A DNA stretch of 57,717 bases, taken from positions 1 through 57,717 of the forward strand of contig JBHJGR010000284.1 of NCBI GenBank assembly GCA_050331615.1, in the 5' to 3' direction. A program made the position numbers and the translations under genes. Positions 21,165 to 52,430 of the stretch are shown here, one piece after another (the first letter of the stretch is position 1; the number at the start of each line of letters is the position of its first letter). The DNA is from Elainellaceae cyanobacterium (GTDB taxonomy: Bacteria; Cyanobacteriota; Cyanobacteriia; CAKZMO01). Below the pieces are notes generated by a model. The model ran no database searches. It was not told the origin of the DNA and worked only from the letters and a program-made list of their open reading frames with translations.

Positions 21165-21383
21165 AGCTTGTCAGTCAAACCTTAGCGCTGAAGCTTTCAA
21201 ATATGACGAAGAAATGTAGAAGTTTGGGTTCTGAGTCGGCACGGGTGATGCCTGTCCAATCGGCTGCGGCTGACCGATGCTGCTGGCTTAGTCTCTGTAA
21301 TGCGGGCATGATCCTGCACCAGGTCCTTGACCATCATACGAGATGATGGGAGGTACTTTGGTATGTCGCACCGGTTAACAGGC

Positions 21384-21707
21384 TCAATCAGCTTCAAACC
21401 CTAAATCGTCATCCAGAAGCTCATCGTACAGTAGGTCTAGCCCAATCAGGACTTTTTCTCGATCCGATAGGTCGCCAATGATTTTGCGTACAGGAGGGGG
21501 CAAAATTTTTGAGAGAGTAGGCGTCGCCAAGATCTTATCTTCCTCAGCAAGCTGCGGGTTTTTGAGCACGTCGATCACCTTCAGGGCATAGACGCCCTGA
21601 AATTCCCGTTCCAAAATGCTGTTGAGCGTCTTCAATGCACGAATTGAGTTGGGCGTGTTGCCCGCAACGTAAAGCTTTAGTATATATGTCTTGCCCGAAG
21701 AACTCAT
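21384..21707 (-). CDS. kaiB: Circadian clock protein KaiB
   Basis: [33 protein letters not shown]. Confidence 0.99.
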
Positions 21708-21800
21708 AGTGAGGAATGATCCAGGATTGTTAGTTGCGAAGGATAGTGATCAAAAGCCTTGACGCCTATGGCAGTGAGGGTTGAGTTTTCAACAGTAGCC

Positions 21801-22730: not shown

Positions 22731-23015
22731 GCGAGCCAATTTCTAACTGCATATTGAGTAATATCTCGCTATCTACAAGATTATTTAACATTTATTGTAG
22801 TTGCAACGCGGCCAACACTGGGACGAAAGCCGCCATAATTAACATAGAAGGCAGCCAAGCGTTTACCTGCTCAAGCAGCCTGGATCCCTTTATGCCCATT
22901 GCTGTCTGTGGTTAGTTGGGCGATCGCCTCAAGCGCTGATCTAAACGCTCGCCCGGCAGAGAGCCATATCCAGGTCTATTCACGACGAGGCATACCCATT
23001 ACCAGGCATCTCATA

Positions 23016-35775: not shown

Positions 35776-37053
35776 CTATGCAGCTTGATATTTATCAGTT
35801 GTGTCGAGAATTGTGGTAAACATACGACCCAGTTTTTCCAGGGAATGGCTTATTCGCAATCCTCCAAAATCAAACGCCAGTCTGGTCGCAATGGCGGGAT
35901 CATCCGATAAAAGATGATCGAGCGCTTCCATGCAATGGGTAACGCTTCCTTCGGGAATGGTAAGCCCAACCTGAAAATGCTCGACTCGTTTGCCCATGCA
36001 AAATCCCTGGCTGGCAACAACAGGCTTCTGGAACACGGCTGCTTTAGTGAGGATGTTGCTGCTGTAGGGGAAATTTTCGTAGGCAGCGAACACGACATCG
36101 CAGGCTTGGATCAGCGCATTAAATTGACTCTCACCGGGAATGCGATCGAGGTGAAAGAAGCAGTTGTCGGGGGAAGACTCGGCAACTGATTTCACCCAGG
36201 CGTATTCTTCAGGGAACCGTTGCCCATACTCCTGGTGGAATTGATGCTCCGAGAGCGCGCCAACAATGACGAAGAGCCAATTCTTCTCGGCTGCCTGCTG
36301 CGCTACTTTTAAGAGCGTCACCACACCCTTGCGCTTGCTAAGGGCACCAGTCAACCCAATAATCTTACGACCTCGGGCTTTCTCACGAATCTGGTTCACC
36401 AGTTCATAGTTGGGATCGGGAGCAGTCTCATCGGTAAAGTCGGGAAAAGGAATCACGGGGGCTGTCAAATCCCGTTGGAGTTTGTCCACAACCCATTCAT
36501 CGACAACGCCGACTGCACGACAATTGCGGGAACGAGCCAGGGAATAATGCGCTAAGCGAGCTTTCAATAGGGGGAGCGATCGCTTTTCATAGCGCAAGTA
36601 TCCTGGTCGGAAATACAGCCCAGCCCAGTTGTAGGGAAAGACGAGATCAATAAAGTGATGAGTTAAGTAATGACTGAAATAGCCATCTAACCAGTTAAAG
36701 AAGACTAAATCTGGCTCATGTCCAATTTGTTGCGCAGCTGTTCGAACAACTGTTGCAGCTTGCTTCCAGCGGCTCAAGGTGCCACTCAGTTGCGGAACAG
36801 GGCCAATACCAGGCAGAGTGCGAACTCGTCCTAACAGTGGCAGAGGTTTGGGCTGCATGGGATGCATTTCAAAGGCATAAAGGTAATCGCTCCGGTTAGG
36901 ACGATTCGCCGCCATCGCCTCCAGTAACAGATTCGGCTCCTGGGAGAACGTCATCACCCGACACCCAAGATCCAACAGTGTCTCAGTAAAAAGCCGCAAG
37001 TAAGTGAAATGGTGTCCGCCTTGGTAGGGTTCAATCAGTGCAACAGTTTTCAT
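35776..37053 (-). CDS. GT-B glycosyltransferase
   Basis: GGHH N-terminus, GALSKRKG, SSNILTKAAVFQKPVV. Confidence 0.75.
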   Translation of the reverse strand: MKTVALIEPYQGGHHFTYLRLFTETLLDLGCRVMTFSQEPNLLLEAMAANRPNRSDYLYAFEMHPMQPKPLPLLGRVRTLPGIGPVPQLSGTLSRWKQAATVVRTAAQQIGHEPDLVFFNWLDGYFSHYLTHHFIDLVFPYNWAGLYFRPGYLRYEKRSLPLLKARLAHYSLARSRNCRAVGVVDEWVVDKLQRDLTAPVIPFPDFTDETAPDPNYELVNQIREKARGRKIIGLTGALSKRKGVVTLLKVAQQAAEKNWLFVIVGALSEHQFHQEYGQRFPEEYAWVKSVAESSPDNCFFHLDRIPGESQFNALIQACDVVFAAYENFPYSSNILTKAAVFQKPVVASQGFCMGKRVEHFQVGLTIPEGSVTHCMEALDHLLSDDPAIATRLAFDFGGLRISHSLEKLGRMFTTILDTTDKYQAA

Positions 37054-37068: not shown

Positions 37069-38487
37069 TCAGCAACGGAGCCGCTCGTGCAGGTCTCCCA
37101 AATTTTTTGTCCTGGAGTGATTGTTGTCCTGATCGCTAATGAGGTCGGGTTTGAATAAATGGTGCAAAATCTCATTGGTCGCTCGGTCAGTTGATTTTCC
37201 ATCTAGGCAATGAGTTAATTCCTTGACAATCGTGCTCTGATGGTCACTTGAACCTTCTTGGACTGACTGGCTCATGACCTGATCGATGACTGTTTCTAAA
37301 TCAGGTTTAGCATCTTGATAAACAGTGGTGAAGTCACCGTACTCTTCCAGATGCTTATAATTTTTGGAGGGTCCTTCCGGCATCAGGTCAAACGCTACCA
37401 CCCGTCGCCCCATAATCAGCGCTTCTTCGGCAACAGTAGAGGCGCGGGTAATCAGTAACTCTGAGATGGAAAGCAAAGAGTAAACATCCAGTTCTGTCAC
37501 GCTCGGTTCAATCACCACCACAGAAGACTCGATCTGAGCATTCGGAATCTCATCCCGATAAATATTGGGCGACAGGCTATCGAGCGGGTGCATTTTAACC
37601 AGCAATATGTATTTAGAGAAGTCCAGGTTGCTGTAAATTTGCTGCATGTATTGCCGATAAAGGGCTTGCTCATCTGACCAGGCAGCGTACTCCGCTTGCA
37701 GGGTAGTTGCCAGAAGAATAATGCGCTTTTGCGGCAATTGGGATTGGAGTGTGGGATAGCGATCTGTTAGTTTTTTAAGCGCTTCATCGGGATTAATTTG
37801 AGCCAGGCGATCATGTAGGGGGTTGCCAACGATGCGGAACCGTTGGGGATCTCCACCATACTTCTCCACGATCTCTCGATAAACTCGTTTGCCCCACACC
37901 AGCACAATATCCGAAGCAGCGGAGGCTAAATCTTCAACGCTATCCGCACGAGTGCCGCCATGCTGAATCGACAGGGTTCTGACCCCAAATCGCTTCAGCG
38001 TGTCCACCGTCTCAACGCCCCAGAAATGGTAAACGTAGGGTCTGCGGTGATCCAGACAAAGAACAACCAGCTTTTGTTCAGGTTGGTGGCAGGCGCGGAT
38101 CAGGCTAAAGTAATCTGTCTGCACCGGGCATCCCAGTGCCTGGAGCTTTTCCAAATTGCTGGGCGAGAGCTTGAGGCGATGAATGCCAAAGAGAACAATC
38201 AAGTTAACTTGAATCCCTTTCTCTTTAACTTCGGGTCGCTTCAACAAATCAAGAATAATGGGAACCAGCAACCGTTCGCAGGCTTTGGAATAGAGGAGAA
38301 ACGTGATTTCCGGTTGAAAAGTGTTGGATCGCGATCGCAGTCGCAGTTGAATGTCCTGCCAGATCACGTTGAATTTGTCCGGGTAATTGAGGCTCTGTTG
38401 CAGCAAAAAATAGTCGTTTCCCAGCACTGCGGCTTCCAGCGGGTCAGTTGCTTTGCGAATAGTATCTTTGAGTAACTTCAGAGCCAT
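37069..38487 (-). CDS. GT-B protein, putative CMP-ulosonate glycosyltransferase
   Basis: IQHGG, VWG, VGNP, VKMHP (HP motif), STVAEEALIMGRRVV; directly downstream of kdsB. Confidence 0.6.
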   Translation of the reverse strand: MALKLLKDTIRKATDPLEAAVLGNDYFLLQQSLNYPDKFNVIWQDIQLRLRSRSNTFQPEITFLLYSKACERLLVPIILDLLKRPEVKEKGIQVNLIVLFGIHRLKLSPSNLEKLQALGCPVQTDYFSLIRACHQPEQKLVVLCLDHRRPYVYHFWGVETVDTLKRFGVRTLSIQHGGTRADSVEDLASAASDIVLVWGKRVYREIVEKYGGDPQRFRIVGNPLHDRLAQINPDEALKKLTDRYPTLQSQLPQKRIILLATTLQAEYAAWSDEQALYRQYMQQIYSNLDFSKYILLVKMHPLDSLSPNIYRDEIPNAQIESSVVVIEPSVTELDVYSLLSISELLITRASTVAEEALIMGRRVVAFDLMPEGPSKNYKHLEEYGDFTTVYQDAKPDLETVIDQVMSQSVQEGSSDHQSTIVKELTHCLDGKSTDRATNEILHHLFKPDLISDQDNNHSRTKNLGDLHERLRC

Positions 38488-38566
38488 ATTTCCCTCGCGA
38501 TCGCACTATTGAACTGATGGTTTGGAGAATTCAACTTTCGTCAGGGGGCAGAGAATCGGAGCACCT

Positions 38567-39304
38567 TTATGGGGTAGCGCCTCCTACCAACTGCAATCGT
38601 GCCCGATCCAGATCTTCTGGCGTGTTCACTTCCATCACAGGTGCGTCAATCTGACAGACCCGAATCGAATACCCATTCTCCAGCACTCGCAATTGCTCCA
38701 GTCCCTCGCACAACTCCAGAGGCGTTGCCGTCAATTGAGCATAATCCGCCAGGAAATCTCTGCGGAAGGCATACAGCCCCAGATGATGATAGACCGGAGC
38801 CGTACCCGGATTGCGAAAATGAGGAATGGGCGATCGCGAAAAGTAGATCGCGTACTGTTGGCGATTTAACAAAACCTTGACAATATTTGGGTCTGGATAA
38901 CCCGTCTCCAAATTCAATGGGCAGGCAAGGGTTGTCATATCCGGCGACTCGCCCTCCAGGTAAGGCGAAATCAGTTGAGTCAACACCTGCGGGGTGACAA
39001 AGGGCAAGTCTCCCTGCACATTGGCAACCACATCAAACGCCTCGTAACGGGCTGCCACCTCAGCAACGCGGTCAGTGCCGCTGAGGTGGTCACTCCGAGT
39101 CATCTCCACCCTGCCCCCAAAGCCGCGAACACAGGCTGCCACGTCTTCACTTTCAGTGGCAACAATGACCTCATCGAAGACGGTGCAACGTCTGGCGGCC
39201 TGGTAAACCCATTGCACCATAGGGCGATTGTCAATGATTGCTAAAGGTTTACCAGGCAACCGTTGGGCTGCATATCGAGCCGGGATCACCGCCAGAATTT
39301 TCAT
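38567..39304 (-). CDS. kdsB: CMP-Kdo synthetase-like cytidylyltransferase (copy 1)
   Basis: IPARYAAQRLPGKPL, SGTDR, NVQGDLP, YFSRSPIP, HLGLYAFR, EGLEQLRVLENG. Confidence 0.9.
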   Translation of the reverse strand: MKILAVIPARYAAQRLPGKPLAIIDNRPMVQWVYQAARRCTVFDEVIVATESEDVAACVRGFGGRVEMTRSDHLSGTDRVAEVAARYEAFDVVANVQGDLPFVTPQVLTQLISPYLEGESPDMTTLACPLNLETGYPDPNIVKVLLNRQQYAIYFSRSPIPHFRNPGTAPVYHHLGLYAFRRDFLADYAQLTATPLELCEGLEQLRVLENGYSIRVCQIDAPVMEVNTPEDLDRARLQLVGGATP

Positions 39305-39962
39305 GAATTAGCTCCGTAAAGTTCGCAATGGTTCGATCGGCATGGGCGAGGTCTGCACTGGAGAACGAAGTCAACACGCCTACACAAAACATGCCCGCTG
39401 CCTTTGCCGCCCTTACCCCCGACTGACTATCTTCAAACACCACACATTCAGAAGGAGAAACCCCCAGTGTGGATGCAACTTTCAGATAGACCTCCGGGTG
39501 AGGCTTGAGCTGCTGTACATCGTCGCGAGTGGCGATCGCATTGAAGGCGATCGCCAGTCCCAGACTCTTCAGCACCGTCAGCGCCTCCTGGCGACTCGAG
39601 CTGGTTGCTACACCCCGTCGCTTTTGGCTCGATTCCAGGTAATGAACAAATTCAACAACACCCGGTACGGGGGAAATTTGTCCCTTCTCCAGAAACGAGT
39701 GATAAGCAGCCCGTTTTGCCTGAATCAGTTGTTCCGGTTCCCCGGTCAACTGAAACTTGTTAAACCAGTAAGCAATTACGGACTGCTCCTTCATGCCTCG
39801 CCAAGCCACATCCTCAGCAGGTAGCTCAACGCCATAAGCCTCGCGAAATACAGCCTGATAGGCTGCAAACTTAAGAGGTTCAGTGTCAGCAATCACGCCA
39901 TCCAGGTCGAAAATAACTGCCTGACAATTGCTGAGGATGAGACTTAGAGAATCCTGGCTCAC
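39249..39962 (-). CDS. HAD-IA phosphatase (beta-PGM/CbbY-like)
   Basis: FDLDGVIADTE, ATSS, KPHPEVY, FEDSQSG; 4-nt GTGA overlap with the upstream synthase. Confidence 0.88.
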   Translation of the reverse strand: MSQDSLSLILSNCQAVIFDLDGVIADTEPLKFAAYQAVFREAYGVELPAEDVAWRGMKEQSVIAYWFNKFQLTGEPEQLIQAKRAAYHSFLEKGQISPVPGVVEFVHYLESSQKRRGVATSSSRQEALTVLKSLGLAIAFNAIATRDDVQQLKPHPEVYLKVASTLGVSPSECVVFEDSQSGVRAAKAAGMFCVGVLTSFSSADLAHADRTIANFTELIHENSGGDPGSICSPTVAW

Positions 39963-40981
39963 GCAACCAACCTCCGACCCACCGCAGTACAGATCTTATC
40001 CAGCACCTGCACCATCTGACTAAACTCATCAAAGGACAGTGCCTGCTCTTTATCACTCTTCGCATTGGCAGGGTCGGGATGCGTTTCAACCAGCAACCCA
40101 TCAATACCCAGAGCCGCCGCAGATTGTGCAACCAGAGGCACTTGCGCCGCAATTCCCATCGCGTGGGACGGATCAAGCACAATAGGCAGGTGGCTCAGCT
40201 CCTTCATCAGTGAGGCAGCGCAAACATCCAGACAAAAGCGAGTTTGTGGTTCAAAGGTGCGGATGCCCCGCTCACAGAGAATCACTTTGGGGTTGCCATT
40301 GCAGAGAATGAAGTCAGCCGCCTGCAAGAATTCCTTAATCGTGGTCATGAAACCGCGCTTCAGAACGATTGGCTGCTTCAACTGTCCACACATTGCCAGC
40401 AGCGAGAAGTTATACATGGACTTGGTGCCAATCTGAATAATATCAGCCACTTCCGCCACTTCTGCCAGATGGGTGGTGTCCTTGACTTCGGTAATAATTT
40501 TCATTCCGAATTCATCCCGCACTTTTGCCAGCAGCCTCAGACCTTCATGCGCCAGGCCCTGGAAAGAGTACGGAGAAGTGCGGGGTTTGAATGCACCAGC
40601 ACGGAACACTTTGATATCAAACTTGCTCCGCAAAAATTCAGCCGTCCGCATCACCTGGTCTTCCGACTCAACTGCGCAGGGTCCCGCCATCATAACGGTT
40701 AAGCCCCGACCAAACACAACGTCATTACCCAGGTCAATTACCGTATCCTGGCTCTGAAACTTGCGGGTGCAGAGTTGATACTCGGTTGACATTTCAATAA
40801 CCGACTCAACCCCATCTACGCTCTTGAGATAGTCAACATCTCCCTTCCATTTAGCAGAAGTTACCAGCAGGGTCTGCTCTCCCCAGGTCACTTCACGAGC
40901 CTCAACATCTTGTTGAGAAAACCATTGCTTCAACTGAGTGAGAGTTGCTTCAGTGGATGCCTGACTGAGTTTGATAATCAT
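39959..40981 (-). CDS. Class I-beta DAH7P-synthase-like aldolase with N-terminal ACT/ferredoxin-like domain
   Basis: AGPCAVES, FKPRTSPYSFQG, LKRG, CERGIRTFE, DPSH, ETHPDP..A.SD. Confidence 0.9.
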   Translation of the reverse strand: MIIKLSQASTEATLTQLKQWFSQQDVEAREVTWGEQTLLVTSAKWKGDVDYLKSVDGVESVIEMSTEYQLCTRKFQSQDTVIDLGNDVVFGRGLTVMMAGPCAVESEDQVMRTAEFLRSKFDIKVFRAGAFKPRTSPYSFQGLAHEGLRLLAKVRDEFGMKIITEVKDTTHLAEVAEVADIIQIGTKSMYNFSLLAMCGQLKQPIVLKRGFMTTIKEFLQAADFILCNGNPKVILCERGIRTFEPQTRFCLDVCAASLMKELSHLPIVLDPSHAMGIAAQVPLVAQSAAALGIDGLLVETHPDPANAKSDKEQALSFDEFSQMVQVLDKICTAVGRRLVA

Positions 40982-41030
40982 AATTTACCTATCAATAGAG
41001 TGGCTCAAAGGTGACAAAATTAGATCCGAT

Positions 41031-42065
41031 CTACAGCGCATGGCTGGAAATGATATCCCGTAACCAGACCAATCCAACACATTGTTCGGATACGTCTACA
41101 ACCGGGATTACATCAAACCCTGCATGGCGCTTGTCGAGTTCTCGTAACAGATGCAGCAGCCGCGTTTCTGGGGTGGCTACGAAGGGACGAGACGCCATCA
41201 AATCCTTGGCTTTCAGATCAGACAAATCAGGCTGAACAATCAGTCTTCTGCGAACATCTCCATCCGTAACCAGACCCAGAAGATGATTCTCGTGGTCAAC
41301 CACACAAGTACATCCAACTTGCTTGGTGTTCATCTCCAGAACCGTTTGACAGATATCTGTATCAGGAGTGACGCGGGGTACCTGATCACGTACTCGCATG
41401 ATGTCCGAGACGCGAAGATACAGATTCTTACCAAAGAGTTTGACCAGTTGCACCAGGTAATCTTCGTTCTTGAGAATGTAAGAACCGGAGATCAGGACAT
41501 CAACTTCCAACTCTCGCAGCAAAGCAGCGGATAGATGATTAACACCGCCATCAACGTGAACCTTAACCTTAGGGAAGGCCCTGCGAAACGCTTTGATCTT
41601 ATTGACAACTTGGTCATTAAACTGTCCACCGGAAACCCCAGGCGTGGCAGACATAAACAAGGCATAATCCAGAATCTGCGCTTTATCAAACAGCTCACTG
41701 ACTGGGGTCTCGGTATTGATTGCCAGTCCGAAATTACAGCCTACCTTGTGTCTGACTTCTTCGAGCTGAGACCAACTCAAATTATTCTCAACGTGAATAC
41801 AGAAGTAATCTTCTGGCTGCAGTTTGACGTCCTGCAGATGAGGTAAAGGATCCTCTACACTCAAATGAACATCAAAAGGTAGACAGGTATTGCGGCGTAA
41901 CTGTTCAATATCTTTCAAATGCAGCGTCTTAGCGTTGTCGCTAACATCATAATGAATAATATCAACACCTACAATGTCCAACTTCTTGAGTACATCGGGT
42001 AAAGCAACTGCACCATCAACAGCAGCTAATAAAGAACAGGAAATTTTAGGAATTTTGTTGAGCAT
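41031..42065 (-). CDS. Fusion of a ribulose-phosphate 3-epimerase-like domain and a KdsD-type CBS pair
   Basis: IHYD, DVHL, PGVSGGQF, VDGGVN, ISGS, followed by VSDIM...CVVD...GLVTDGDVRR...IPVVD. Confidence 0.8.
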   Translation of the reverse strand: MLNKIPKISCSLLAAVDGAVALPDVLKKLDIVGVDIIHYDVSDNAKTLHLKDIEQLRRNTCLPFDVHLSVEDPLPHLQDVKLQPEDYFCIHVENNLSWSQLEEVRHKVGCNFGLAINTETPVSELFDKAQILDYALFMSATPGVSGGQFNDQVVNKIKAFRRAFPKVKVHVDGGVNHLSAALLRELEVDVLISGSYILKNEDYLVQLVKLFGKNLYLRVSDIMRVRDQVPRVTPDTDICQTVLEMNTKQVGCTCVVDHENHLLGLVTDGDVRRRLIVQPDLSDLKAKDLMASRPFVATPETRLLHLLRELDKRHAGFDVIPVVDVSEQCVGLVWLRDIISSHAL

Positions 42066-42112
42066 GATAATGCCTCTCAAATTAGTAGTAATTCGTAAGA
42101 CTTAAAGAGTCG

Positions 42113-42841
42113 CTATACTCCTAGGAGTTGTTTGACCTTTTCAAGATCCTCTGGAGTATCGACCCCGATAGAATCGTAATTAACTAAACAGCATTGAATT
42201 TTATAGCCATTCTCCAGTATTCGAAGCTGCTCAAGCGACTCTGCAAGCTCTAGGGGAGTCTGTAGCATGCTCACATACTTTTCTAGGAAATCTTTCCGAT
42301 AACAGTACAAACCAATGTGCCGATAGTACTTCTTCTCATTCAGAGCACTCCGATAGAAGGGAATTGGATATCGGGAGAAATACAGAGCCTCGAGGTTATG
42401 GTTAAGTGCCACTTTGACCGTATGAGGAGATCTAAGTTCTTCAAGATCACAAGATTCAACTACCGGCGTAGAACAAACGGCTTCTGGCGCGTCTAGCAAA
42501 GCTTGAATACAAGCATCAATTACAGTTGGATCAATTAGGGGTTCATCACCCTGAATATTCACGACTATGTCACAAACATCACGCTTGACTGCTTCGTAGC
42601 AGCGATCGCTTCCAGTCGCGATGTGCGTACCAGTCATCACCGCTCTGCCACCGAAAGATATAACATTGTCATAAATCCGCTGGTCATCTGTTGCAACCAG
42701 AACTTGATCCAGTAATTTGCTCTTTAAGCACTTCTCGTAAACCATCTGGATCATCGTCTTACCGCCAATGGTTGCCAGCGGCTTGCCCTCGAAGCGAGTT
42801 GATTTATAGCGGGCTGGGATAACGCCAATTACACTTGTCAT
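42113..42841 (-). CDS. kdsB: CMP-Kdo synthetase-like cytidylyltransferase (copy 2)
   Basis: IPARYKSTRFEGKPL, TGSDR, NIQGDEP, YFSRYPIP, HIGLY, ESLEQLRILENG, GVDTPED. Confidence 0.92.
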   Translation of the reverse strand: MTSVIGVIPARYKSTRFEGKPLATIGGKTMIQMVYEKCLKSKLLDQVLVATDDQRIYDNVISFGGRAVMTGTHIATGSDRCYEAVKRDVCDIVVNIQGDEPLIDPTVIDACIQALLDAPEAVCSTPVVESCDLEELRSPHTVKVALNHNLEALYFSRYPIPFYRSALNEKKYYRHIGLYCYRKDFLEKYVSMLQTPLELAESLEQLRILENGYKIQCCLVNYDSIGVDTPEDLEKVKQLLGV

Positions 42842-43649
42842 ATTATGTTAACCATTAGTAACTCAAGCGTGCGTTAGAGACTCTAGATATCCTACTTTTA
42901 GCTTATCAATTCAACCTTCTTAGGATGGCGGGTCTTATGCGATCGATGAAGTCAATAATAAGAAGTATACTTACCTGAAAACAAATTGGCCAGATAAAGC
43001 AGCATCTCCTTGTCAAAAGATAATGATCAGTGAGTAGAAACACTCCGGTTGAACACTGAGTTTAGCCGTCCTAAATAGGAATTTAAGTCGTTCTCAAACA
43101 GATTTCTAGAGCTGAAGAGATGTCTTCACTAAAAAAATATAGTACCCCCTATCTTATCTATCTACAAATAGACTCTCAGAGCCAAGCAAATCAAGGATTT
43201 CCAGAAGGTTCAGAAAGAGTTATAGGTTGGACTTCTTTAAAGATCACATAAACAAAGGGCTTAGCAAATTTGTTGACCTAAAGCTATATCTCACCAAAAT
43301 TTAATCATTTCTACCTGAAATCTTTATCCTCAAGTATCTCAGCTAATAAAAATTAGACTTTATGCTACTAGCTTCGTAAGCATCATAGAATCTAAGACAT
43401 TAGACCTAGTTTCACCACCTAACAGTTAGAGGAAAAACTTAGGCAATAATTTAGGATCACTGCAGCAGATCTCAGTGAGTTCTGCAGCCAATCGTTGTAG
43501 AAAGCGCAGGCCAGAGAGCTGTAAGTAGACAAATGCTGCATATCTACAACAGGCAAACGGTTATCAAGCAGACTGGTATCGATTCTCATCTATGCTGGCT
43601 CTGTTGCAGCGAATTATACGAATGAACTTATCTACTCTTACCTCGTAGA

Positions 43650-43743
43650 TAAGTGTCTAGCTATAAGCAAAGCCATCGGGATGCGCCCCCTACCAGGAGG
43701 CGCATCCCAATAATAGCTCCGTTTACTTGTGACCACCTACTTA
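43650..43743. mobile_element. MITE-like element, family A
   Basis: taagtg...cctactta termini; gggatgcgcc...ggcgcatccc hairpin. Confidence 0.65.
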
Positions 43744-43747
43744 GTAT

Positions 43748-45280
43748 TTATTCAGATACTTCCCAAAGGTCTTCCATCATCTCAACCTGACCAGGGCAAG
43801 TTGGTTTTTGCGTGCGCTGAACAATTTTAACAGCAACCTGCTCAGTAGAAATAGCGCCTTGACGACCAATAGGGGTATTGGTCTGATCCGTCAAAAGTTT
43901 GGGGGGCCTAACTAGTAGAAAACAAGCTTGCGGATATTCTGCTGCCGCTACTTTGGTCAGTCCCTCGATCGCATATTTAGCGCTGGTGTAGTGGGGCCAG
44001 TCACTTGGTGAGGACTGAGAGACCACAACTGATGAAATGATAACAACAGAACCTGAATTCTCAGATAGCAGGTTGAGAAAAGCTGACATTGGCACGCTCA
44101 TCAGCGCGAGGCTTTTACTCACATAATCATTGACTCGTGCGATCGCCGTTGGTTCAACCCAGAGGGGTAAAATTGCAGGACAGGCATTGCAGATCAAGAA
44201 GTCCAATTTGCCATACTTTTCAAGAATCTCCTGCTGAGCCGCAAGACACCAGGAGAGTTCCGAGGCATCTCCCTGCATCAGCACGATCTCGCCTGATGCA
44301 TCTGCTAGCGCAGTTTGCAGTTGCTCTGCCTCAGAACGACTGCGAAGAAAGTTGACCAGAACGGTGCATCCCTGCAAAGCTAGAGATTGGGCGATCGCCG
44401 CTCCCAACCCCCGACTGGCTCCTGTTACCAGAGCAACCTTACCCTTGAGAGCATCGGATCGGGGCATCAAGGCTTCAATTGAGGTTGTGGTACTGGTCGG
44501 AGCAGCCGGACGAATAAAGGATTGAATCTCTCCGCGTGCCAGAGGCATTCCATCGGCAGCTAGCTCGACTCTGGTTCGCAGCAGATTGTAGCGATCGTCA
44601 AGCTGAATTAAAGATGCTTTATAAGAAAATGCTTCAGTGAGATCAGGAATAGACTCTTCCAGATTCAAAGAGAACTTAGAGAACAGAGCTTGAGTTCCCG
44701 GCAACTCCATTCCCACAAAGTAGCTTGCCCACAGAAGGATAGCGACTTCAACTTCCCCAATTCCCTTTTGAGACAAACTCAAATTATTGATTAATTTCCT
44801 TAACGCCTCGATTTCAGGACAGTAAGTTTCTTCAATCTGAAGTCCCTCAGTTAAATCGGATGTGGACAATATTGCCGCTTCAGTACGAGCTGCGTAAGGG
44901 GCAGCGGCTTTGATTCGAGAAGGTTTTCCGGGAGAGAAGTGAGCCGTCACCTTTGACATTAACCGTCTACCATCAAAAATCCGGATGACTGCCTTTTCTG
45001 AGGTAGTTTCATTTATCTCAAAAGAGTACGGAAGATCGACAAATAGAGGGGCTGGAAACTCCAAAACAATTTTGCTCAATCGCATCTCCGGGCGATCCTG
45101 TAAGTGGCTTAAGCCAAACAGTCCGCCAAGAATTCCGAATACCACACGATTGGCAAAGGGAGTTTTGCGAGCGTAATCATCGGAAAGATGGAGTGGATTG
45201 CGATCGTGGCTTGCCTGACTGAACAGTTCCAGATCATCAATGGAAAAGCGAACTAGAGTTTTAGCCTGTGAAGATTCCAT
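43748..45280 (-). CDS. MaoC (hotdog) dehydratase - SDR reductase fusion
   Basis: SHDRNPLH hydratase motif, second hotdog-like VGMELPG, SDR TGASRGLG and YTSAK. Confidence 0.82.
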   Translation of the reverse strand: MESSQAKTLVRFSIDDLELFSQASHDRNPLHLSDDYARKTPFANRVVFGILGGLFGLSHLQDRPEMRLSKIVLEFPAPLFVDLPYSFEINETTSEKAVIRIFDGRRLMSKVTAHFSPGKPSRIKAAAPYAARTEAAILSTSDLTEGLQIEETYCPEIEALRKLINNLSLSQKGIGEVEVAILLWASYFVGMELPGTQALFSKFSLNLEESIPDLTEAFSYKASLIQLDDRYNLLRTRVELAADGMPLARGEIQSFIRPAAPTSTTTSIEALMPRSDALKGKVALVTGASRGLGAAIAQSLALQGCTVLVNFLRSRSEAEQLQTALADASGEIVLMQGDASELSWCLAAQQEILEKYGKLDFLICNACPAILPLWVEPTAIARVNDYVSKSLALMSVPMSAFLNLLSENSGSVVIISSVVVSQSSPSDWPHYTSAKYAIEGLTKVAAAEYPQACFLLVRPPKLLTDQTNTPIGRQGAISTEQVAVKIVQRTQKPTCPGQVEMMEDLWEVSE

Positions 45281-45438
45281 AATTTCTTTCAACCTGATAG
45301 TTCGCAACCAATGTTTGTGTTAACTACACACCAGTACTTACCCAGCCTTCATCAAAAATTTGGGATGGGGGGGGTAGAAACTCCAAGAGCGCCCCCGTAC
45401 TCTACTTAAACATTAAACAGAAAAATCAGCGAGTTTGT

Positions 45439-46545
45439 TTACTCTGACTGAGAATGAACTGTTCTTAAATCAAGGCTATCAAGCCATTCAATAACTTCGG
45501 GATTTTCCGCAGCCCACTGCTGGCACTGCGCTCTAACCTGCTGTAAATGCTCATCGACATTTTCTGACGTGACATAGACTCCAAAGTCGTCAGGTACGGT
45601 GTCGACCTGATGATTGAACATTCGGTTGAGAAGCAGGTTGCCAGTCGTATAAGTGTAATGAGATGGGTCTTCGTAATACTCCATCACCTCTTTAATAGGC
45701 TCAGTCGTAATGCTGTTACACCCTGAAAAGTCCCACACTGGGTGAATACTGATCACTTCACGAACCCACTGTGCATAAGTAGGCCAGTAATTTTCTATTC
45801 TTGAAGAATAGAAGTGGGTTACGTGACTAGGCGATAAAAAAAACTTAACGTCAATCCCCTCAGTACGGGAGGTTTCTACTTTGGCACGGAAACTATCAAT
45901 GGCTTCCTCTGACAATTCATAGTCCCAGTACATCTGGGCGGGTTCGGAAAAGTCTGTTTGAAGTTGCGTCTCAAACTGACGAATTCTGGTCAACCCAATT
46001 TCATGTTTGTAAGTTCCATCTTCATCAAAATATACTCCCCGCTCCTCAGGATTGAGAATCAGATTGAGAGAATCTAGGGACAAGTACAATCCAAAAAGAT
46101 CATTTAGAATTGGATGAGGCAAATCTAATCTTTCGCTTGAGAAACCAGTTTCCACAGTATTATTTTGATTGAACGCAAAGAAATTCAGCTCGACGATAAC
46201 CCGCTCGAGATCTTCTACATGTCGATTTGTGTACTGAAAAAACCGTTTTAATTCGTAGGCATTGGCAGCTAGGATCGAGAGGTTATAGACCGGAGCGTAG
46301 GATAAGGATATTGCAGAAACATAATCAGGATCCAGTCCTCTGGCAACACCAGATGCACCAATCAGAACAGTCTTGGGTTCAGCCTGAAGAACTTTATAAG
46401 CTTTGACGAGTCGATCATTGTTAACTCGTCCGCCCCCTTTACGGATACCGTAGGGATCTACTAAGAGATTAGTCGTAAATATACTGAGAAGGTAGACTGC
46501 GGCACAACTGCAGAAAGCTTTGATGAACTTACTGTACTGAGACAT
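45439..46545 (-). CDS. Membrane-anchored SGNH-like (DltD/AlgJ-like) MBOAT partner
   Basis: N-terminal transmembrane helix ending NLLVDPYG; IGAS, YNLS, C-terminal DPSH (DxxH). Confidence 0.6.
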   Translation of the reverse strand: MSQYSKFIKAFCSCAAVYLLSIFTTNLLVDPYGIRKGGGRVNNDRLVKAYKVLQAEPKTVLIGASGVARGLDPDYVSAISLSYAPVYNLSILAANAYELKRFFQYTNRHVEDLERVIVELNFFAFNQNNTVETGFSSERLDLPHPILNDLFGLYLSLDSLNLILNPEERGVYFDEDGTYKHEIGLTRIRQFETQLQTDFSEPAQMYWDYELSEEAIDSFRAKVETSRTEGIDVKFFLSPSHVTHFYSSRIENYWPTYAQWVREVISIHPVWDFSGCNSITTEPIKEVMEYYEDPSHYTYTTGNLLLNRMFNHQVDTVPDDFGVYVTSENVDEHLQQVRAQCQQWAAENPEVIEWLDSLDLRTVHSQSE

Positions 46546-46679
46546 ATCACATCTTTGGGGAAAATACGACAGGGATTTCTACTTCCTTGAAGACTAAACT
46601 CTCTGGAAGAAACGGTAGAAGCGAGACCTTGACAGGGGCTTTTGACAAACAACCTGAGTTGCGTCTAGAGTTCTTTCAG

Positions 46680-46721
46680 GGTTTGATTTTTTAATAGCGA
46701 TCGCTATTAAAAAATCAAACC
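46680..46721. repeat. Perfect 42-bp palindrome centred on HIP1
   Basis: ggtttgattttttaatagcga|tcgctattaaaaaatcaaacc, with no spacer. Confidence 0.95.
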
Positions 46722-46733
46722 TCGAAGAAAATC

Positions 46734-48338
46734 TTAGAACTGGAAGTAAATAAATTCGCTAACTTGGCTAAGACCGAGAAATGCAATAACGGCGATCGCA
46801 CTAGTCAACCCTGCCCACAGCACAGTAGGACGCCACTCAGAATTTTTCCACACGATTGTCAACCAGCGGGGATGATGTTGCAGTTCATGGACGGGGTTGA
46901 AGTTCAGACCTGGTTCAAATCGTGCCATCCACTGTTGAGTATTGGGAAAGTAGAAAACAATCACCATCAATACTGCCAATCCCAATACACCAGCCTTGTT
47001 ATCCGGGAAGAGCTGGTTCGGGAAAATGGCTCCATCTGTCAGGGCGAACCCATTGGTACCCAGCATAGATGCAATGACCGTCATGGCATTGTCAACACTG
47101 GGTGCCCGGAAAAAGATCATGGCAACAACAACGGCTAGGAAAGTAATTCCCTGTCCAATCCGTTGCCCCAACCAATTCACTTTCTTTAAGTTGTAGCCTC
47201 TAGACTTTAAGATCATATGCCAGCCGTGGTTGACAGTAAGATAAAATCCATGCAAAAAACCAAATGCAATGTATTGCCAACCAGCGCCATGCCAGAGACC
47301 AGCAAGAAACATTGTAATAATCGTTGGAGTAGCGATCAGCTCGATGAAGGCTCCGAAACTGCCAACTCCACGCTTGATTAGACTCTTACCCTGTCTCATA
47401 CGACGGCGGGAGAAGTTTAGGGCGATCGGGTTATAGAGGTAGCGGGTTAAAAAGCGGGTCAGAGTCATGTGCCAGCGTCCCCAAAAGTCAATAATATTGA
47501 TTGCTTTATAGGGGGAATTAAAGTTAAGCGGGAGCTTGATGCCAAATAATCGAGCTGCACCAATCGCCATATCCGAATAACCGGAGAAGTCGAAGTAAAT
47601 CTGCATCGTATACGCCAGCGCTCCCATCCAGGCTTCTGGCATGCTCAGCGGCACGCCCTGACTGGCAGCATTGAAAACAGGAGTGGAGTAAAGGGCAATC
47701 TGGTCAGCCAGGATTACCTTCTTAAACAGCCCTATCGAGAAAATCGATAGACCGACCGCTACATCATCTTGATTCAACCCAAATTTCGATTGCTTTGAAA
47801 ACTGGGGCATCATCTCGTCATGATTAACAATGGGACCGGCGATCAGTTGGGGGAAGAAGGTCACGAAAAGGCAATAATCAAGGAATCGATAATGCCGGGT
47901 TTCCCCTTCCATGCTGTCCATCAAGTAAGAGATTTGCTGAAATGTATAAAATGAAATGCCTAGCGGTAAAATAATCTGGGCTATACTAAACGATGTTCCG
48001 ACAAGGGCGTTGACGTTATCAATAAAGAAGTTGAAATATTTATAGTAGCCAATTAGCCCTAAATTAAATACGACACCCAATACCAATAGGAATTTTCCCC
48101 GGTTTTCGTTCTCAGTAAGATGCGCCTGATTGAGTACCTGCCCTAGAGCGTAGTTCACCCCAATTGAGAGAAACAGCAGCAGCAAATAGGGCGGATTCCA
48201 CCAACCGTAGAAGAAAAAAGAAACCGTAATGAGCCAGAAGATTGGCGATCGCCGACTTCCCAGACGGCTGGTTAAATAAAATCCCAGCAGCGTAATCGGG
48301 AGGAAAAGTAATATGAATTCGTATGAGTTGAAAAGCAT
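46734..48338 (-). CDS. MBOAT O-acyltransferase (AlgI/DltB-like)
   Basis: MLFNS start, LPLGISFYTFQ, FPQLIAGPI, YFDFSGYSDMAIG, FWGRWHMTL, GLWHGA, C-terminal EFIYFQF. Confidence 0.95.
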   Translation of the reverse strand: MLFNSYEFILLFLPITLLGFYLTSRLGSRRSPIFWLITVSFFFYGWWNPPYLLLLFLSIGVNYALGQVLNQAHLTENENRGKFLLVLGVVFNLGLIGYYKYFNFFIDNVNALVGTSFSIAQIILPLGISFYTFQQISYLMDSMEGETRHYRFLDYCLFVTFFPQLIAGPIVNHDEMMPQFSKQSKFGLNQDDVAVGLSIFSIGLFKKVILADQIALYSTPVFNAASQGVPLSMPEAWMGALAYTMQIYFDFSGYSDMAIGAARLFGIKLPLNFNSPYKAINIIDFWGRWHMTLTRFLTRYLYNPIALNFSRRRMRQGKSLIKRGVGSFGAFIELIATPTIITMFLAGLWHGAGWQYIAFGFLHGFYLTVNHGWHMILKSRGYNLKKVNWLGQRIGQGITFLAVVVAMIFFRAPSVDNAMTVIASMLGTNGFALTDGAIFPNQLFPDNKAGVLGLAVLMVIVFYFPNTQQWMARFEPGLNFNPVHELQHHPRWLTIVWKNSEWRPTVLWAGLTSAIAVIAFLGLSQVSEFIYFQF

Positions 48339-48725
48339 TTTAGGATGAGGGGTTGGAGTATAACTGCAAACTTCTCTAGAATCACAGATAAATAGAATCT
48401 GAAATGTTACTTTGAAAATGGGCAAAGAGCAGCTTCGAAAGCAAACTCTAAAAAAATCTGCAATCCTGTCTCAGACTCAGGCAGACCCTCGGATTACAGA
48501 TAAATCAAAATCAGACTTCTACTGTCAGAAATGCGGCTTTACTAAATCTTCCAAAAGTTAGTTAGTCTGCGTTTCCTATCACGTTCGCGACCCTGAGGTT
48601 AATTGAACTTACTTCCGGTATGGTAAAGGGCAGCGAGCAATTTAGTACCTGAGAGGGCGGAGCACAATTTAAGTTGTAGAAAGAACTGTCGCAAGAAGAT
48701 TTTGAGTACCCCGCCTCCTCCAACG

Positions 48726-48980
48726 CTAAACGGTTAGCTTAGTTAGCTTAGTTTGAATCAAGTCAACGAATTCACCAACATTACTAAGCTGAGCGACCTC
48801 AGACGTTTTGAACTTGATACCGAATTCCTGCTCAACTCCCAATACTAAATTGATATGAGCCATTGAGTCCCAGCCACTGACATCTTTCGCAGAAGTATTG
48901 TCTTCCACCGTGATGTCGTCATCATCGAATACATCCTGAAAGATCGTATTGAGTTGCTCGTAAATTTCTTCGCGGTTCAT
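48726..48980 (-). CDS. Acyl carrier protein
   Basis: WDSMAH phosphopantetheine site, VEQEFGIKF, NVGEFVDLI. Confidence 0.92.
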   Translation of the reverse strand: MNREEIYEQLNTIFQDVFDDDDITVEDNTSAKDVSGWDSMAHINLVLGVEQEFGIKFKTSEVAQLSNVGEFVDLIQTKLTKLTV

Positions 48981-48990
48981 CGGATATCTC

Positions 48991-50913
48991 CTATACTGAA
49001 ACGGTTGTTTTGATGAAAGTGTTAAACCCTTTGAATTGATCCAGATCAAGCTTCCACAGACTTCGGAACGCCTCCCCGTCTTCCTGCTTCTCGTGGATCA
49101 ACTCAAAGCCAAGTTTTGCATAGTGGTCCTTCACCATGCCATTTTTAGCTGTCTGAATATATTCTCCATACAATACGCGATACCTCCGGTAGCGTGCCTG
49201 ATTGACCAGCACATTGAGAACTTCCTGCTCGACCTGTCGTCCCAATACCCGGCAACTCATTAACCAAGTATCTATATGCAGCGCCTTCTCAGATTCAAAG
49301 ATAATGGGCTTGGCGATCGCCACACTGATCAAACCGTTATCCCCAAAGTCATCTTTCAGACGAACTTGAAGACACAGAACATCAGGGTCTTCACTCATCT
49401 GCTTGACCTGCGCTTCGGTATAACGATGAGTCGTCAGGTTGAATTGATTACTCTTGTTAATCAACTGAGTAGCACGAGGCAGGGAAACAGAATCGACTGA
49501 GGCAACGCTCATCTCCATGTGGAGGCTTTCCAAAAAGCCCTCCAGACTATGCGCCTTTTCCTTCAGTTCATTTCTGCGACTGTTCGCCAGATATTGTTCT
49601 GCCCGCTTCATGTCATCGCCGGAGAAGGAAACCGCCTCAAAGTATCCAGCGTCAGACAAACAACGGACGTAGAGCGCTGGATCTTCCGGCACTTCGGGTA
49701 CTGCAACAGCGGGAGCAAACTGGCGTACCACTGCTCGCTCAACCGGATTGTCGTCAAAGAAAACCAGAGAATCCAAACCAATGTTCAGAGTGGTTGCAAT
49801 CCGCTTAAGATTAGTCGCCTTATCTTCCCAGTTGGCGACAAATACAGCAATGTCATCTTGACGCAAGATCATCTCTGGGTGCTTTTCAAACGGCTCCAGA
49901 GCATTCGCTTCTTCATTCTTGGAGCAAACTGCCAGGATAATGCCTCGCTCCTTCAACGCTTTTGCGTAAGCCTGAAAGGCGTAAAAGGCTTCACCAACAG
50001 CGTTGCCTTGCCCTAGAAGGATTCCCGACAGCCCATCGTCGCCAATCACTCCACCCCACACAGTGTTGTCTAGATCGAGTACCAGGCACTTGTAGGATAG
50101 TCCCCGAACGGCAGCTAGCATCCGCGCCAAGTGATCCCCATAGAGGGGCGAATAAACTGGAGAGATGTCTTGTTTTGCGTGGTGCCAGAGGGCAGCGTCA
50201 CACCAGAGATGCTTACCGATATAGGCTGCAATCTCATCTGTGTTAAGCAGCAACACCTTGTGTTCAGAAGCTCTTGAGCGTAAAACCTCATTTACCTGAT
50301 TTAGAATGCTTGCCGGTGAAGCAGGTAGCACTGCATCGTAATGCCCAAACAAGTGCTCAGGCGGAATGACCATCATCTGCTGGATGGCGATCGCCTTCAA
50401 CTGAGTATTGATTGTTTCCCAGAGATGCACCCATTCATCGACCCGCTGCTCTACAGCAGCTTTGACATCTTGAACGGGAGAAGCCCAGGGTAGCTTCACC
50501 CCAACATCATTGCCATTGAGTGCCAGGAGTACAACATCGGGTTGGAATTCGTACAGACCAGAGGCAGGGTTCAAAACTTCTTGACGGTACTGACCGTAGG
50601 GCGCAACATAGCATTCTGCAATCAAGCCTCGACGCAGCGCAGCGACCCGAATTGCAGGAAGCAGATGCTCGATTGTAGAGGATGCCAACACTGCAAGCCG
50701 AATCGTCTGTAAGCCACTTGCCTCACCAGGATGGGCAGCCAGAACTTCCTGGAGGCGACGATCAACTCGTGAAGTTTGTGTGAAATCAAGGTTATGCTTC
50801 GCGATTTCACGTAAGCAACGAATCTGCTCCTTGGATTCGCTAATCTGCTTACAAATTGCAATTGCCTCTCGAAAATCAGAGTGCTTAGGTAGCCAGTGTA
50901 GAAATTCTCTCAT
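48991..50913 (-). CDS. FkbH-like HAD-IIIC glyceryl-ACP synthase
   Basis: LVLDLDNTVWGG, CSKN, FFDDNPVE, NKSNQFN, LMSCRV; ~260-aa N-terminal extension. Confidence 0.92.
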   Translation of the reverse strand: MREFLHWLPKHSDFREAIAICKQISESKEQIRCLREIAKHNLDFTQTSRVDRRLQEVLAAHPGEASGLQTIRLAVLASSTIEHLLPAIRVAALRRGLIAECYVAPYGQYRQEVLNPASGLYEFQPDVVLLALNGNDVGVKLPWASPVQDVKAAVEQRVDEWVHLWETINTQLKAIAIQQMMVIPPEHLFGHYDAVLPASPASILNQVNEVLRSRASEHKVLLLNTDEIAAYIGKHLWCDAALWHHAKQDISPVYSPLYGDHLARMLAAVRGLSYKCLVLDLDNTVWGGVIGDDGLSGILLGQGNAVGEAFYAFQAYAKALKERGIILAVCSKNEEANALEPFEKHPEMILRQDDIAVFVANWEDKATNLKRIATTLNIGLDSLVFFDDNPVERAVVRQFAPAVAVPEVPEDPALYVRCLSDAGYFEAVSFSGDDMKRAEQYLANSRRNELKEKAHSLEGFLESLHMEMSVASVDSVSLPRATQLINKSNQFNLTTHRYTEAQVKQMSEDPDVLCLQVRLKDDFGDNGLISVAIAKPIIFESEKALHIDTWLMSCRVLGRQVEQEVLNVLVNQARYRRYRVLYGEYIQTAKNGMVKDHYAKLGFELIHEKQEDGEAFRSLWKLDLDQFKGFNTFIKTTVSV

Positions 50914-51194
50914 TGTCTTAAGGAGAACTGCTCTCCAGAGTAGGTTTGCTGGCCTAACTGAAAACTTTACCGAACTTATTGACTCAGGTTACGATTCAGA
51001 CACAATACAAGCAAGCATATTTCGGCAGGCTTTAAAGAAATAATATAATTATGTAAAGTTTCACTGAAGCCGATTCCTCTTAGAATTTAGGTTTTGTCGA
51101 GCAATCAAAAAAAGCAAATCGCGTCGTGTTTAGTATAAGATACTGTACACAACACGTGTGGGATTTTTTCCTGCTTTGTCGGGTAAAGCTTTAA

Positions 51195-52358
51195 CTAATC
51201 AGCCTTCAATTCCTGAACCATCTCTACTATTGCAGGATTTTGTGCTACCCAACGTTCACGATCGCTACGAATTTGCTCCAGATGAGTAGCGATATTGTCG
51301 GGAGTTACCCAAACTCCAAATGCTTCGGGAATATTTTGCCCTTGAGGTTGCGGAGAACAAATCTCCTCGCCCTGGGATTGTAGAATACAGTTAAGAATTA
51401 AATTCCCCACCTCTTCCCGGTAGTGAGCACCGTCCCGGAAGTAATGCATGTCATCAGAAATTGTTTCCGCTGTAACAAAGTTGTAAACCGAAAAATCCCA
51501 AATAGGGATAATTTCAGCAACCTGCCGCTTCCAATCTTCAAAAACAGACCAGAGATTTGCAGCTTGAATTGCTTCCAGGTGACTTGCATGAAAAGGTGAA
51601 ATAAATACTTTGAGTTCGATATCGTGCTTTTCGCATAAATCAACAATTGCTTTCAAACTATCTAGCATCTCTGGTGAAAGAGAGAACTGCCCGTATAACT
51701 CTGACCGATGTAAGTATGTTTTGAGATATTCCTGAAAAATATCAATCGTCGGTTTATTAGAGTTAAAATACTCCTCATTCCTCGTCCCGTTAGAGTAGTA
51801 GGGAAATCCAGTGCCCTCATCTGTGTTTTCGGTAACTGTTTCAATACTGGCTTCCAGTGCATCTATGGAAAGTATTACTTTTAGAAGATCACTAACTACC
51901 ACATGATCTTGTCCCAACCTATCTTCGTAAAAATCCACTTCAGTAACGTTCTTGTGATTATACGAAACAAAATCCAACCCCAATACAACCACCTCTAAAT
52001 CAGGTTGATTGGCGATTGCGTGTTCCAGATATCTAAGCTGCTCATAGGCATTAGAATCGGGCAGCCCCAAATTGTAAACGGGTTGATAGTTTGCCAGAGA
52101 TGGATGATCAGGATTGAGTCCGTACTCAACTCCAGAAGTTCCTATAAATACTGCTTTGGGCTTGATCCGAACCACATCAACTGCTTTAAACAAGCGAACG
52201 TGGCTTGCTTCCTTTGGCTTCTCCTGATTCAAGCCTGCGATCGCGGGACTACCAAGAATCCCAAAAGGATCAATTATCAGATTGAATAACCCTATACCGA
52301 GGACTCCGATCAGAGTTGCGCAAATGACGATCTGATTGTACTTGGAATACGCTTTCAT
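51195..52358 (-). CDS. Membrane-anchored SGNH-like (DltD/AlgJ-like) protein, paralog of 45439-46545
   Basis: Transmembrane helix ending NLIIDPFG; IGTS, YNLG, FISPFH, WDFS, DGAH, FGVWVT. Confidence 0.6.
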   Translation of the reverse strand: MKAYSKYNQIVICATLIGVLGIGLFNLIIDPFGILGSPAIAGLNQEKPKEASHVRLFKAVDVVRIKPKAVFIGTSGVEYGLNPDHPSLANYQPVYNLGLPDSNAYEQLRYLEHAIANQPDLEVVVLGLDFVSYNHKNVTEVDFYEDRLGQDHVVVSDLLKVILSIDALEASIETVTENTDEGTGFPYYSNGTRNEEYFNSNKPTIDIFQEYLKTYLHRSELYGQFSLSPEMLDSLKAIVDLCEKHDIELKVFISPFHASHLEAIQAANLWSVFEDWKRQVAEIIPIWDFSVYNFVTAETISDDMHYFRDGAHYREEVGNLILNCILQSQGEEICSPQPQGQNIPEAFGVWVTPDNIATHLEQIRSDRERWVAQNPAIVEMVQELKAD

Positions 52359-52362
52359 CTTG

Positions 52363-52430
52363 AAATTGGAAGTAAAGAAACGTAGGAACTTAATCAACCA
52401 ACAAAAAAACAAACATAAAGCGGCAGCATA
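52363..52430 (-). pseudogene. Possible 3' remnant of a second MBOAT gene
   Basis: Minus strand encodes VPTFLYFQF, then CAA (TAA would be the stop), immediately before the ATG at 52358. A hydrophobic stretch lies upstream in a shifted frame. Confidence 0.4.

Follow-up and report, generated by a model that had tools for sequence, protein, structure and literature searches.

The KdsD/KdsA pathway is treated as the universal route to 3-deoxy-D-manno-octulosonate (Kdo), the enzymes KdsD (or KpsF), KdsA, KdsC and KdsB acting in four steps to yield CMP-Kdo. The stretch of DNA analysed here (the window: 57,717 nucleotides, contig JBHJGR010000284.1 of the Elainellaceae cyanobacterium assembly GCA_050331615.1) carries, within a glycan locus, minus-strand genes for a KdsB-family CMP-ulosonate synthetase (kdsB1), a fusion of a ribulose-phosphate 3-epimerase barrel with a CBS pair (Rpe-CBS), an aldolase resembling 3-deoxy-D-arabino-heptulosonate 7-phosphate (DAHP) synthase, and a capped HAD protein. 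These four genes constitute a mobile cassette that displaces the genes of CMP-Kdo synthesis in place. They are very probably a complete substitute for kpsF-kdsB-kdsA-kdsC, supplying a CMP-activated 3-deoxy-ulosonate with the ring configuration of Kdo to the glycosyltransferase (GT) that is encoded downstream. The product would, tentatively, be CMP-3-deoxy-D-lyxo-heptulosonate, a seven-carbon homologue of CMP-Kdo made via D-threose 4-phosphate, a reading of the sequences that is slightly favoured over a new route to Kdo itself.

A cassette in the place of the CMP-Kdo genes

The preliminary description of the window had placed six genes on the minus strand at 37069..42841; six open reading frames are present at those coordinates and profile matches bear out their families. 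A survey of 301 genomes of the class turned up homologues of the sixth, the GT, in 10, and one of 173 genomes of one order in 6; with genome G420 added and duplicates removed, 14 genomes result. In each of them the GT follows one of the two cassettes. Canonical kpsF, kdsB and kdsA stand upstream of it in seven (G014, G053, G566, G346, G740, G678 and G883, with kdsC in all but G883), while a further two, G882 and G1011, have kdsA or kdsC upstream of it at a contig end. In the other five (the source genome G000, G417, G418, G691 and G420) the place is occupied by kdsB1, Rpe-CBS, the aldolase gene and the HAD gene, the last at the same position in all five full loci. The swap is read from gene maps that show the same flanks around either cassette. 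In G883, for example, genes for FkbH, the MBOAT acyltransferase, a 368-residue protein and MaoC/SDR precede, and those for GT and a GT4-like glycosyltransferase follow, in the order found in the window, with kpsF-kdsB-kdsA between them; G346 and G740 have in common with G691 the downstream run GT-GT4-epimerase-unassigned-GT4. G691, a single contig that is 100% complete, is without kdsA or kpsF.

In a GT tree of 11 rows, which is no formal test of one clade, the GT of G420, beside the new cassette, pairs with that of G014, beside a Kdo cassette (99/99), on short branches, while those of G000, G417, G418 and G691 group apart (92/98). Since the GTs of G420 and G014 are sisters apart from the other carriers, the tree suggests that there were at least two swaps and that the GT may accept either product.

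The source genome is 100% complete, in 432 contigs. Genome searches found in it no kdsA and no kpsF/kdsD, and tblastn found no kdsC. It has an ordinary rpe (contig C248) and three other DAHP synthases: two of type I-beta with the usual G-A/S-R-N-M-Q (C22, C162) and one I-alpha-type KPRTT protein (C372). What this means for the two core enzymes is that Rpe-CBS is not the housekeeping epimerase of the pentose phosphate pathway, and that the aldolase, which also forms a branch of its own, is not the housekeeping (let alone the sole) DAHP synthase of the shikimate pathway. Elsewhere in this genome (C431:2650-9340) a separate nonulosonate-type cluster can be recognised on reading translations (aminotransferase, NeuB-like synthase, cytidylyltransferase).

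Distribution and joint inheritance

The cassette is rare among cyanobacteria and the Rpe-CBS fusion family is large. Random samples yielded no further carrier (0 of 400 genomes of the phylum, 0 of 16 of the family, 0 of 100 relatives of G420 and 0 of 130 genomes from the phylum to which G419 is assigned). The Rpe-CBS family profile, by contrast, has at least 1110 matching clusters (clustered at 90% identity; E <= 1e-60; 120 listed), under names from Bacteroidota, Gammaproteobacteria, Bacillota and Chloroflexota. Gene neighbourhoods were read in cyanobacteria; outside them the measure of linkage is a proxy, a shared size of the longest contig. By this measure 23 of the 54 best Rpe-CBS entries pair with one of 58 synthase entries (57 best matches, and P0202, which was added after its match was noticed), compared with 0 of 49 lower-ranked controls. 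Across the 23 pairs, which include kin, are not independent and show joint inheritance only, the identity matrices of the two proteins correlate with rho 0.85 (0 of 2000 permutations). In the cultured Halomicronema hongdechloris C2206 the two proteins have adjacent accessions (ASC70435.1, ASC70436.1). The earlier proposal of a conserved non-canonical CMP-ulosonate gene set is upheld to this extent: it recurs in G417, G418, G691 and G420, and its two core genes are inherited together across phyla.

Searches of viral, phage and plasmid collections found nothing that belongs to the family. A metagenome scan with the Rpe-CBS alignment was dominated by the CBS domains of KdsD, and the fusion was found in 0 of the 80 loci kept. 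A 3.4-kb contig (L003, G419:C638) encodes three proteins of the cassette (KdsB1, Rpe-CBS and the synthase), 76-84% identical to their cyanobacterial counterparts; its genome is labelled Oligoflexales and also has kdsA and kpsF, and this contig, which may represent mis-binning or recent transfer, is left out of the cross-phylum count. The GxKxMY subfamily of synthases also occurs in Campylobacter volucris and C. lari (P0189, P0376, P0377). A further fusion, of a transaldolase/fructose-6-phosphate aldolase domain with a CBS pair (364 residues, mostly in Bacteroidota), may be a third alternative for the first step of ulosonate pathways; enzymes of the transaldolase/fructose-6-phosphate aldolase kind can make aldose phosphates. 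An in-frame KdsA-KdsC fusion of 470 residues with intact KANRT lies in the cassette's cluster in G420 (L099:1450-2862, contig C15).

The first enzyme: Rpe-CBS

The Rpe-CBS gene (41031..42065, minus strand) has an ATG start and encodes 344 residues, with PF00834 at 12-202 followed by a PF00571 CBS pair. The predicted structure (pLDDT 91.7) has Rpe structures and KdsD CBS pairs as its top Foldseek matches. The best solved match of the CBS pair is that of KdsD (3K2V, E 1.4e-12; also 3FNA and 4O9K), and this segment is a probable feedback sensor of the CMP-sugar. The protein falls short of the Rpe family cut-off (TIGR01163, 104 versus 212 bits), and the SIS domain of KdsD/KpsF is absent, the TIGR00393 match covering only 148-267, the CBS part.

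Active-site changes were followed at 29 positions in 254 full-length fusions (out of 527 proteins; residue numbers count from the second residue) and compared with 72 barrel-only proteins, some truncated family members among them. The catalytic tetrad H37, D39, H66 and D171 is kept in 253, 253, 254 and 254 of the 254 fusions, and in that sense the chemistry is unchanged; no new conserved acid or base appears among the 29 profiled positions. The FVPN loop and DxHLM are found in none of the 254 and HxDxMD in two; in 251, PGxSG stands in place of PGFGG. The length of the beta-8 phosphate loop is that of Rpe in 252 and that of AlsE (GTSG) in none, there being a gap relative to E. coli AlsE. One extra residue in this loop is reported (Chan 2008) to make AlsE prefer six-carbon substrates. 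By structural reasoning, erythrose 4-phosphate is ribulose 5-phosphate minus C1, and ribose 5-phosphate is allulose 6-phosphate minus C1; if this loop rule holds, the short beta-8 loop fits conversion of erythrose 4-phosphate to threose 4-phosphate and not of ribose 5-phosphate to arabinose 5-phosphate.

The second enzyme: a DAHP-synthase-like aldolase

The aldolase gene (39959..40981, minus strand) encodes a divergent type I-beta protein with KPRT and GxKxMY motifs, which passes NF006421 (384 versus 335 bits) and TIGR01361. Its score with the profile of 3-deoxy-D-manno-octulosonate 8-phosphate (KDO8P) synthase, TIGR01362, is 134 bits (cut-off 314), and it has neither of the KdsA motifs KANR(S/T) and PAFLxR. 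Its metal and phosphoenolpyruvate (PEP) ligands align with those of the Thermotoga maritima enzyme 1RZM and are kept (C102, H273, E299, D310, R127, K132, R134, K208, R238). In a quick tree (26 of 34 rows) the family is separated from the other DAHP synthases of the source genome (SH-aLRT 90).

Conservation was counted in the 120 nearest homologues of 714 matches. Of these, 118 have KPRT and none has KANR; the loop is two alignment columns shorter than in KdsA. The Arg of GARNxQ, which the C22 and C162 copies of the source genome retain, is Lys (K187) in all 120, within a motif G[TA]K[SA]M[YF] that reads GTKSMY in the window; KdsA has Phe at the site of this lost Arg. Position 167 is Lys or Arg in all 120, Leu or Met in the source genome's other DAHP synthases and His in KdsA. 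These changed positions also differ between DAHP and KDO8P synthases. We infer that the aldolase may be adapted to an aldose with inverted C2, a property common to threose 4-phosphate and arabinose 5-phosphate. The KANRS/KPRS loop sets chain length, and a short KPRT loop would favour a four-carbon aldose. Some DAHP synthases can use threose 4-phosphate or five-carbon sugars. (Neither the loop-length rule nor the use of threose 4-phosphate or five-carbon sugars by DAHP synthases was found in the literature searched.)

Last steps: HAD, the two KdsB proteins and the glycosyltransferase

The HAD gene (39249..39962, minus strand) encodes a capped HAD-IA protein resembling beta-PGM (PF13419, TIGR01509), the proposed ulosonate-phosphate phosphatase. 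The 25 matches listed are HAD-IA only, and the cap-less HAD-IIIA profile of KdsC, TIGR01670, is not among them. Its gene overlaps that of the aldolase by GTGA (39959-39962) and kdsB2 by 56 nucleotides, as the preliminary description had it. The second overlap stems from a local deletion in which HAD lost its stop codon, because in G417 and G418 HAD ends before kdsB2, with an intergenic gap between them; the last ~18 HAD codons of the window are read-through into kdsB2. A conserved translational coupling of HAD and kdsB2 was considered and rejected, since the overlap is local and absent from those two genomes.

kdsB1 (42113..42841, minus strand; TIGR00466, 205 bits, cut-off 155) encodes a protein ~40% identical both to KdsB2 and to E. 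coli KdsB; the six cassette copies form a clade of their own (100/99). KdsB1 keeps the residues that are invariant with E. coli KdsB, namely R10, K19, Q98, D100, R157, R164, H181, Y185 and E210 (E. coli numbering), which are assigned to Kdo binding. kdsB2 (38567..39304, minus strand; also above the TIGR00466 cut-off) is the resident cyanobacterial kdsB, its product 55-70% identical to the KdsB of kpsF-kdsB-kdsA-kdsC cassettes and nested among them (97/95). It is kept in G000, G417 and G418 and absent from G691 and G420. Because kdsB2 nests with the canonical cyanobacterial genes and kdsB1 forms its own clade, kdsB2 appears to be a relic of the displaced Kdo cassette. The notion that two KdsB enzymes serve the new pathway is accordingly corrected as regards origin: kdsB1 belongs to the cassette, and the kdsB tree rules out that both genes are native parts of it.

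The GT (37069..38487, minus strand) has the GT-B fold, with invariant QHGG and K-HP motifs and only weak Glyphos_transf and Epimerase_2 matches. No Kdo transferase is among its listed Foldseek matches, which indicate the general GT-B fold only, and there is no sequence match in the PDB. It is, because of its gene context, a probable ulosonate transferase fed by either cassette. In another cyanobacterium a polysialyltransferase-like gene (PF07388; L121:7994-9220, G011:C36) directly follows kdsA-kdsC and is a candidate for a second type of Kdo transferase.

What the cassette makes

Along the four-carbon route, the Rpe-like domain would use two Asp residues and a metal to epimerise C2 of D-erythrose 4-phosphate, giving D-threose 4-phosphate; the synthase, whose change at the GARN position would suit it to a C2 of opposite configuration, would condense this with PEP to 3-deoxy-D-lyxo-heptulosonate 7-phosphate; HAD would take off the phosphate and KdsB1 would add CMP, while the CBS pair would sense the CMP-sugar. 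The product would be Kdo without its C8 (and would become Dha, the diacid, only if a separate oxidase acted later). By stereochemical reasoning D-lyxo is the configuration of Kdo at C4-C6, which fits a KdsB with conserved active site and a GT common to Kdo cassettes. The core of this scheme, threose 4-phosphate and its condensation with PEP, had been put forward in the preliminary description; the scheme keeps a slight preference because both chain-length loops are short, with synthesis of Kdo nearly as likely. A still wider claim, which we hold to be less likely than not, is that a widespread and mis-annotated pathway, in which the epimerase and the synthase subfamily are both new, makes CMP-3-deoxy-D-lyxo-heptulosonate via D-threose 4-phosphate and can displace the Kdo pathway outright.

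The principal rival, which has a substantial if lesser claim, is a new, non-orthologous route to Kdo. Rpe-CBS would then make arabinose 5-phosphate, either by isomerising ribulose 5-phosphate or by epimerising C2 of ribose 5-phosphate (AlsE-minus-C1 chemistry), the KPRT synthase would be a KDO8P synthase, and HAD and KdsB1 would finish CMP-Kdo. Several observations weigh on its side and against the threose 4-phosphate route. The GT does not sort by cassette type, and a one-for-one replacement of the Kdo cassette feeding sister GTs is most simply explained if both cassettes make plain Kdo. G420, a draft genome that yielded neither kpsF nor any other matching SIS protein, has an intact kdsA-kdsC whose KdsA is without decay (13 versus 10 lineage-specific changes, dN/dS ~0.10 versus G014); kdsA and kpsF otherwise co-occur in all 59 kdsA-bearing genomes of a 121-genome sample (51 of the 59 from one family), and the exception suggests that Rpe-CBS can supply arabinose 5-phosphate. 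Three methionines prevent isomerisation in Rpe, according to PMC9978339 and PMC8756792. Two of the three, on beta-2 and beta-3, are lost in the fusions, and with this cushion gone the enzyme may have become free to act as an isomerase like KdsD. Loop length is also no absolute ruler: AlsE and Rpe are promiscuous and cross-active, and five-carbon sugars are substrates of some I-beta DAHP synthases. The CBS pair of KdsD type points the same way, as do two features of the synthase: Lys or Arg at 167, which is His in KdsA, and the replacement of the DAHP-synthase Arg at a site that is Phe in KdsA. Against synthesis of Kdo stand the shortness of both loops in essentially all family members and the lack, at the profiled positions, of a newly conserved base that could serve C1 chemistry; moreover, the evidence from G420 comes from a single draft assembly with no completeness reported, and the kdsA-kdsC in it may be a leftover of recent date, just as kdsB2 seems to be one in three other carriers.

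Other explanations carry much less weight. A promiscuous cassette, in which Rpe-CBS epimerises tetrose as well as pentose phosphates and the synthase and KdsB present set the mix of Kdo and its seven-carbon homologue, would account for the short loops, for kdsA-kdsC in G420 and for kdsB2 in G000, G417 and G418, and would draw on the cross-activity of Rpe and AlsE, but G691 has neither relic, so that relics are not needed; we think it improbable. Direct use of erythrose 4-phosphate by the synthase, leading to CMP-3-deoxy-D-arabino-heptulosonate and leaving Rpe-CBS to feed pentose-phosphate flux or to serve some other role, agrees with the retention of KPRT and of all DAHP-synthase ligands. It is nevertheless quite improbable in view of the invariant GxKxMY change, of an Rpe pocket remodelled in all 254 fusions of a family whose member in G000 coexists with an ordinary rpe, and of a C5 hydroxyl that would be inverted relative to Kdo and would poorly fit a GT common to Kdo cassettes; such direct use would also make the epimerase partner pointless, yet the two genes travel together. 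That a shikimate DAHP synthase and an rpe are ordinary housekeeping paralogues, set by chance in a glycan locus, is hardly credible: database names do read DAHP synthase and ribulose-phosphate 3-epimerase, but other copies exist in G000, the genes are swapped as a cassette and inherited together, and their active-site changes are family-specific. The synteny by itself already largely refutes this explanation.

Either product would represent new enzymology. Kdo would mean a second route to that sugar, hidden in more than a thousand protein clusters by the misleading names 'rpe' and 'DAHP synthase'; such a route by this cassette appears to be undescribed so far, and no description of the gene set was found in a literature search that took in few subscription papers. 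The seven-carbon homologue would be a new nucleotide sugar, and its pathway would make the skeleton of Dha accessible to enzymes for the first time; many bacteria, possibly including lipopolysaccharide makers among the Bacteroidota, would carry a seven-carbon sugar where Kdo has been assumed. The natural swap pairs (the same GT with two cassettes), the cultured carrier H. hongdechloris C2206 and the solubility of the four enzymes make the question directly testable.

Surroundings of the cassette

The window is cyanobacterial by content (psbB, kaiA, kaiC), and the locus around the cassette is one of glycan genes (ABC exporter, FkbH, MBOAT and GT4 genes). Next to the GT gene lies that of the GT4-like glycosyltransferase (35776..37053, minus strand; PF00534), the downstream flank that is kept beside both cassette types. 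The upstream flank (43748..50913, minus strand) encodes FkbH, an acyl carrier protein, the MBOAT acyltransferase, the 368-residue protein of no assigned family and a MaoC-SDR fusion. The larger block at 43748-52412, with its DltB/AlgI-like MBOAT protein and a second unassigned protein of 405 residues that is related to the one of 368, precedes either cassette type in G417, G691 and G883; its likely role is to decorate the glycan with an acyl or glyceryl-type group.

Ahead of kdsB1 there is an AT-rich intergenic stretch of 906 nucleotides (42842-43747); the same spot in G691 (L136:5683-6800) holds what look like fragments of a transposase. GC3 of kdsB1 and Rpe-CBS is 0.44-0.46, below that of housekeeping genes (0.56-0.70). 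At 19599-26321 kaiC and kaiA, with a short open reading frame between them that is probably kaiB, diverge from a large hybrid histidine kinase gene, an ordinary arrangement.

Comparison with known systems

Dha has the same seven-carbon D-lyxo skeleton as the favoured product. The enzymes of its biosynthesis and its activated form are listed as unidentified in PMC12168206 (2025) and PMC3355719. Unlike that product, Dha needs a C7 carboxyl; the operon of the window had been described as having no obvious C7 oxidase, and none is encoded in the cassettes of G000, G417, G418, G420 and G691, in a search confined to linked genes (the upstream MaoC-SDR also flanks the canonical Kdo cassette of G883). 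The suggested link to Dha itself is therefore not sustained by the five mapped loci and is a lead only.

For the HAD protein there is a precedent in the plant KDO8P phosphatase, Arabidopsis GPP2, described as a capped HAD (10.64898/2026.05.02.722439): it dephosphorylates an ulosonate phosphate, as is proposed for the protein of the window, and the likeness is taken as one of fold class.

The aldolase is closest, among solved sequences, to the type I-beta DAHP synthase of T. maritima (1RZM), with which it has in common the N-terminal ferredoxin-like domain and barrel, the Cys/His/Glu/Asp metal site and KPRT. It differs in having G[TA]K[SA]M[YF] for GARNxQ and a basic residue at 167, in its separate branch, in its linkage to Rpe-CBS wherever linkage can be checked, and in not keeping the HISKGQERT segment of the regulatory domain, which presumably binds Tyr/Phe. 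Rpe-CBS resembles Rpe in barrel fold, His-Asp-His-Asp tetrad, Ser10, DGG, the beta-6 Met and the length of the beta-8 loop; unlike Rpe it has a CBS pair, an M-D-G-x-F-V-P-N loop shorter by 4-6 residues, no beta-2 or beta-3 Met, and PGxSG, and it is without the extra residue of AlsE.

With the bacterial CMP-Kdo pathway as a whole the cassette shares the four-step logic, the genomic slot, an activator of the KdsB family and a KdsD-type CBS pair on the first enzyme. As originally perceived, and in agreement with the profile tests, each step upstream of KdsB is filled by another family: an Rpe barrel stands in for SIS, a synthase with KPRT and GxKxMY for the KANRS/PAFLxR enzyme and a capped HAD-IA protein for KdsC, and both chain-length loops are short.

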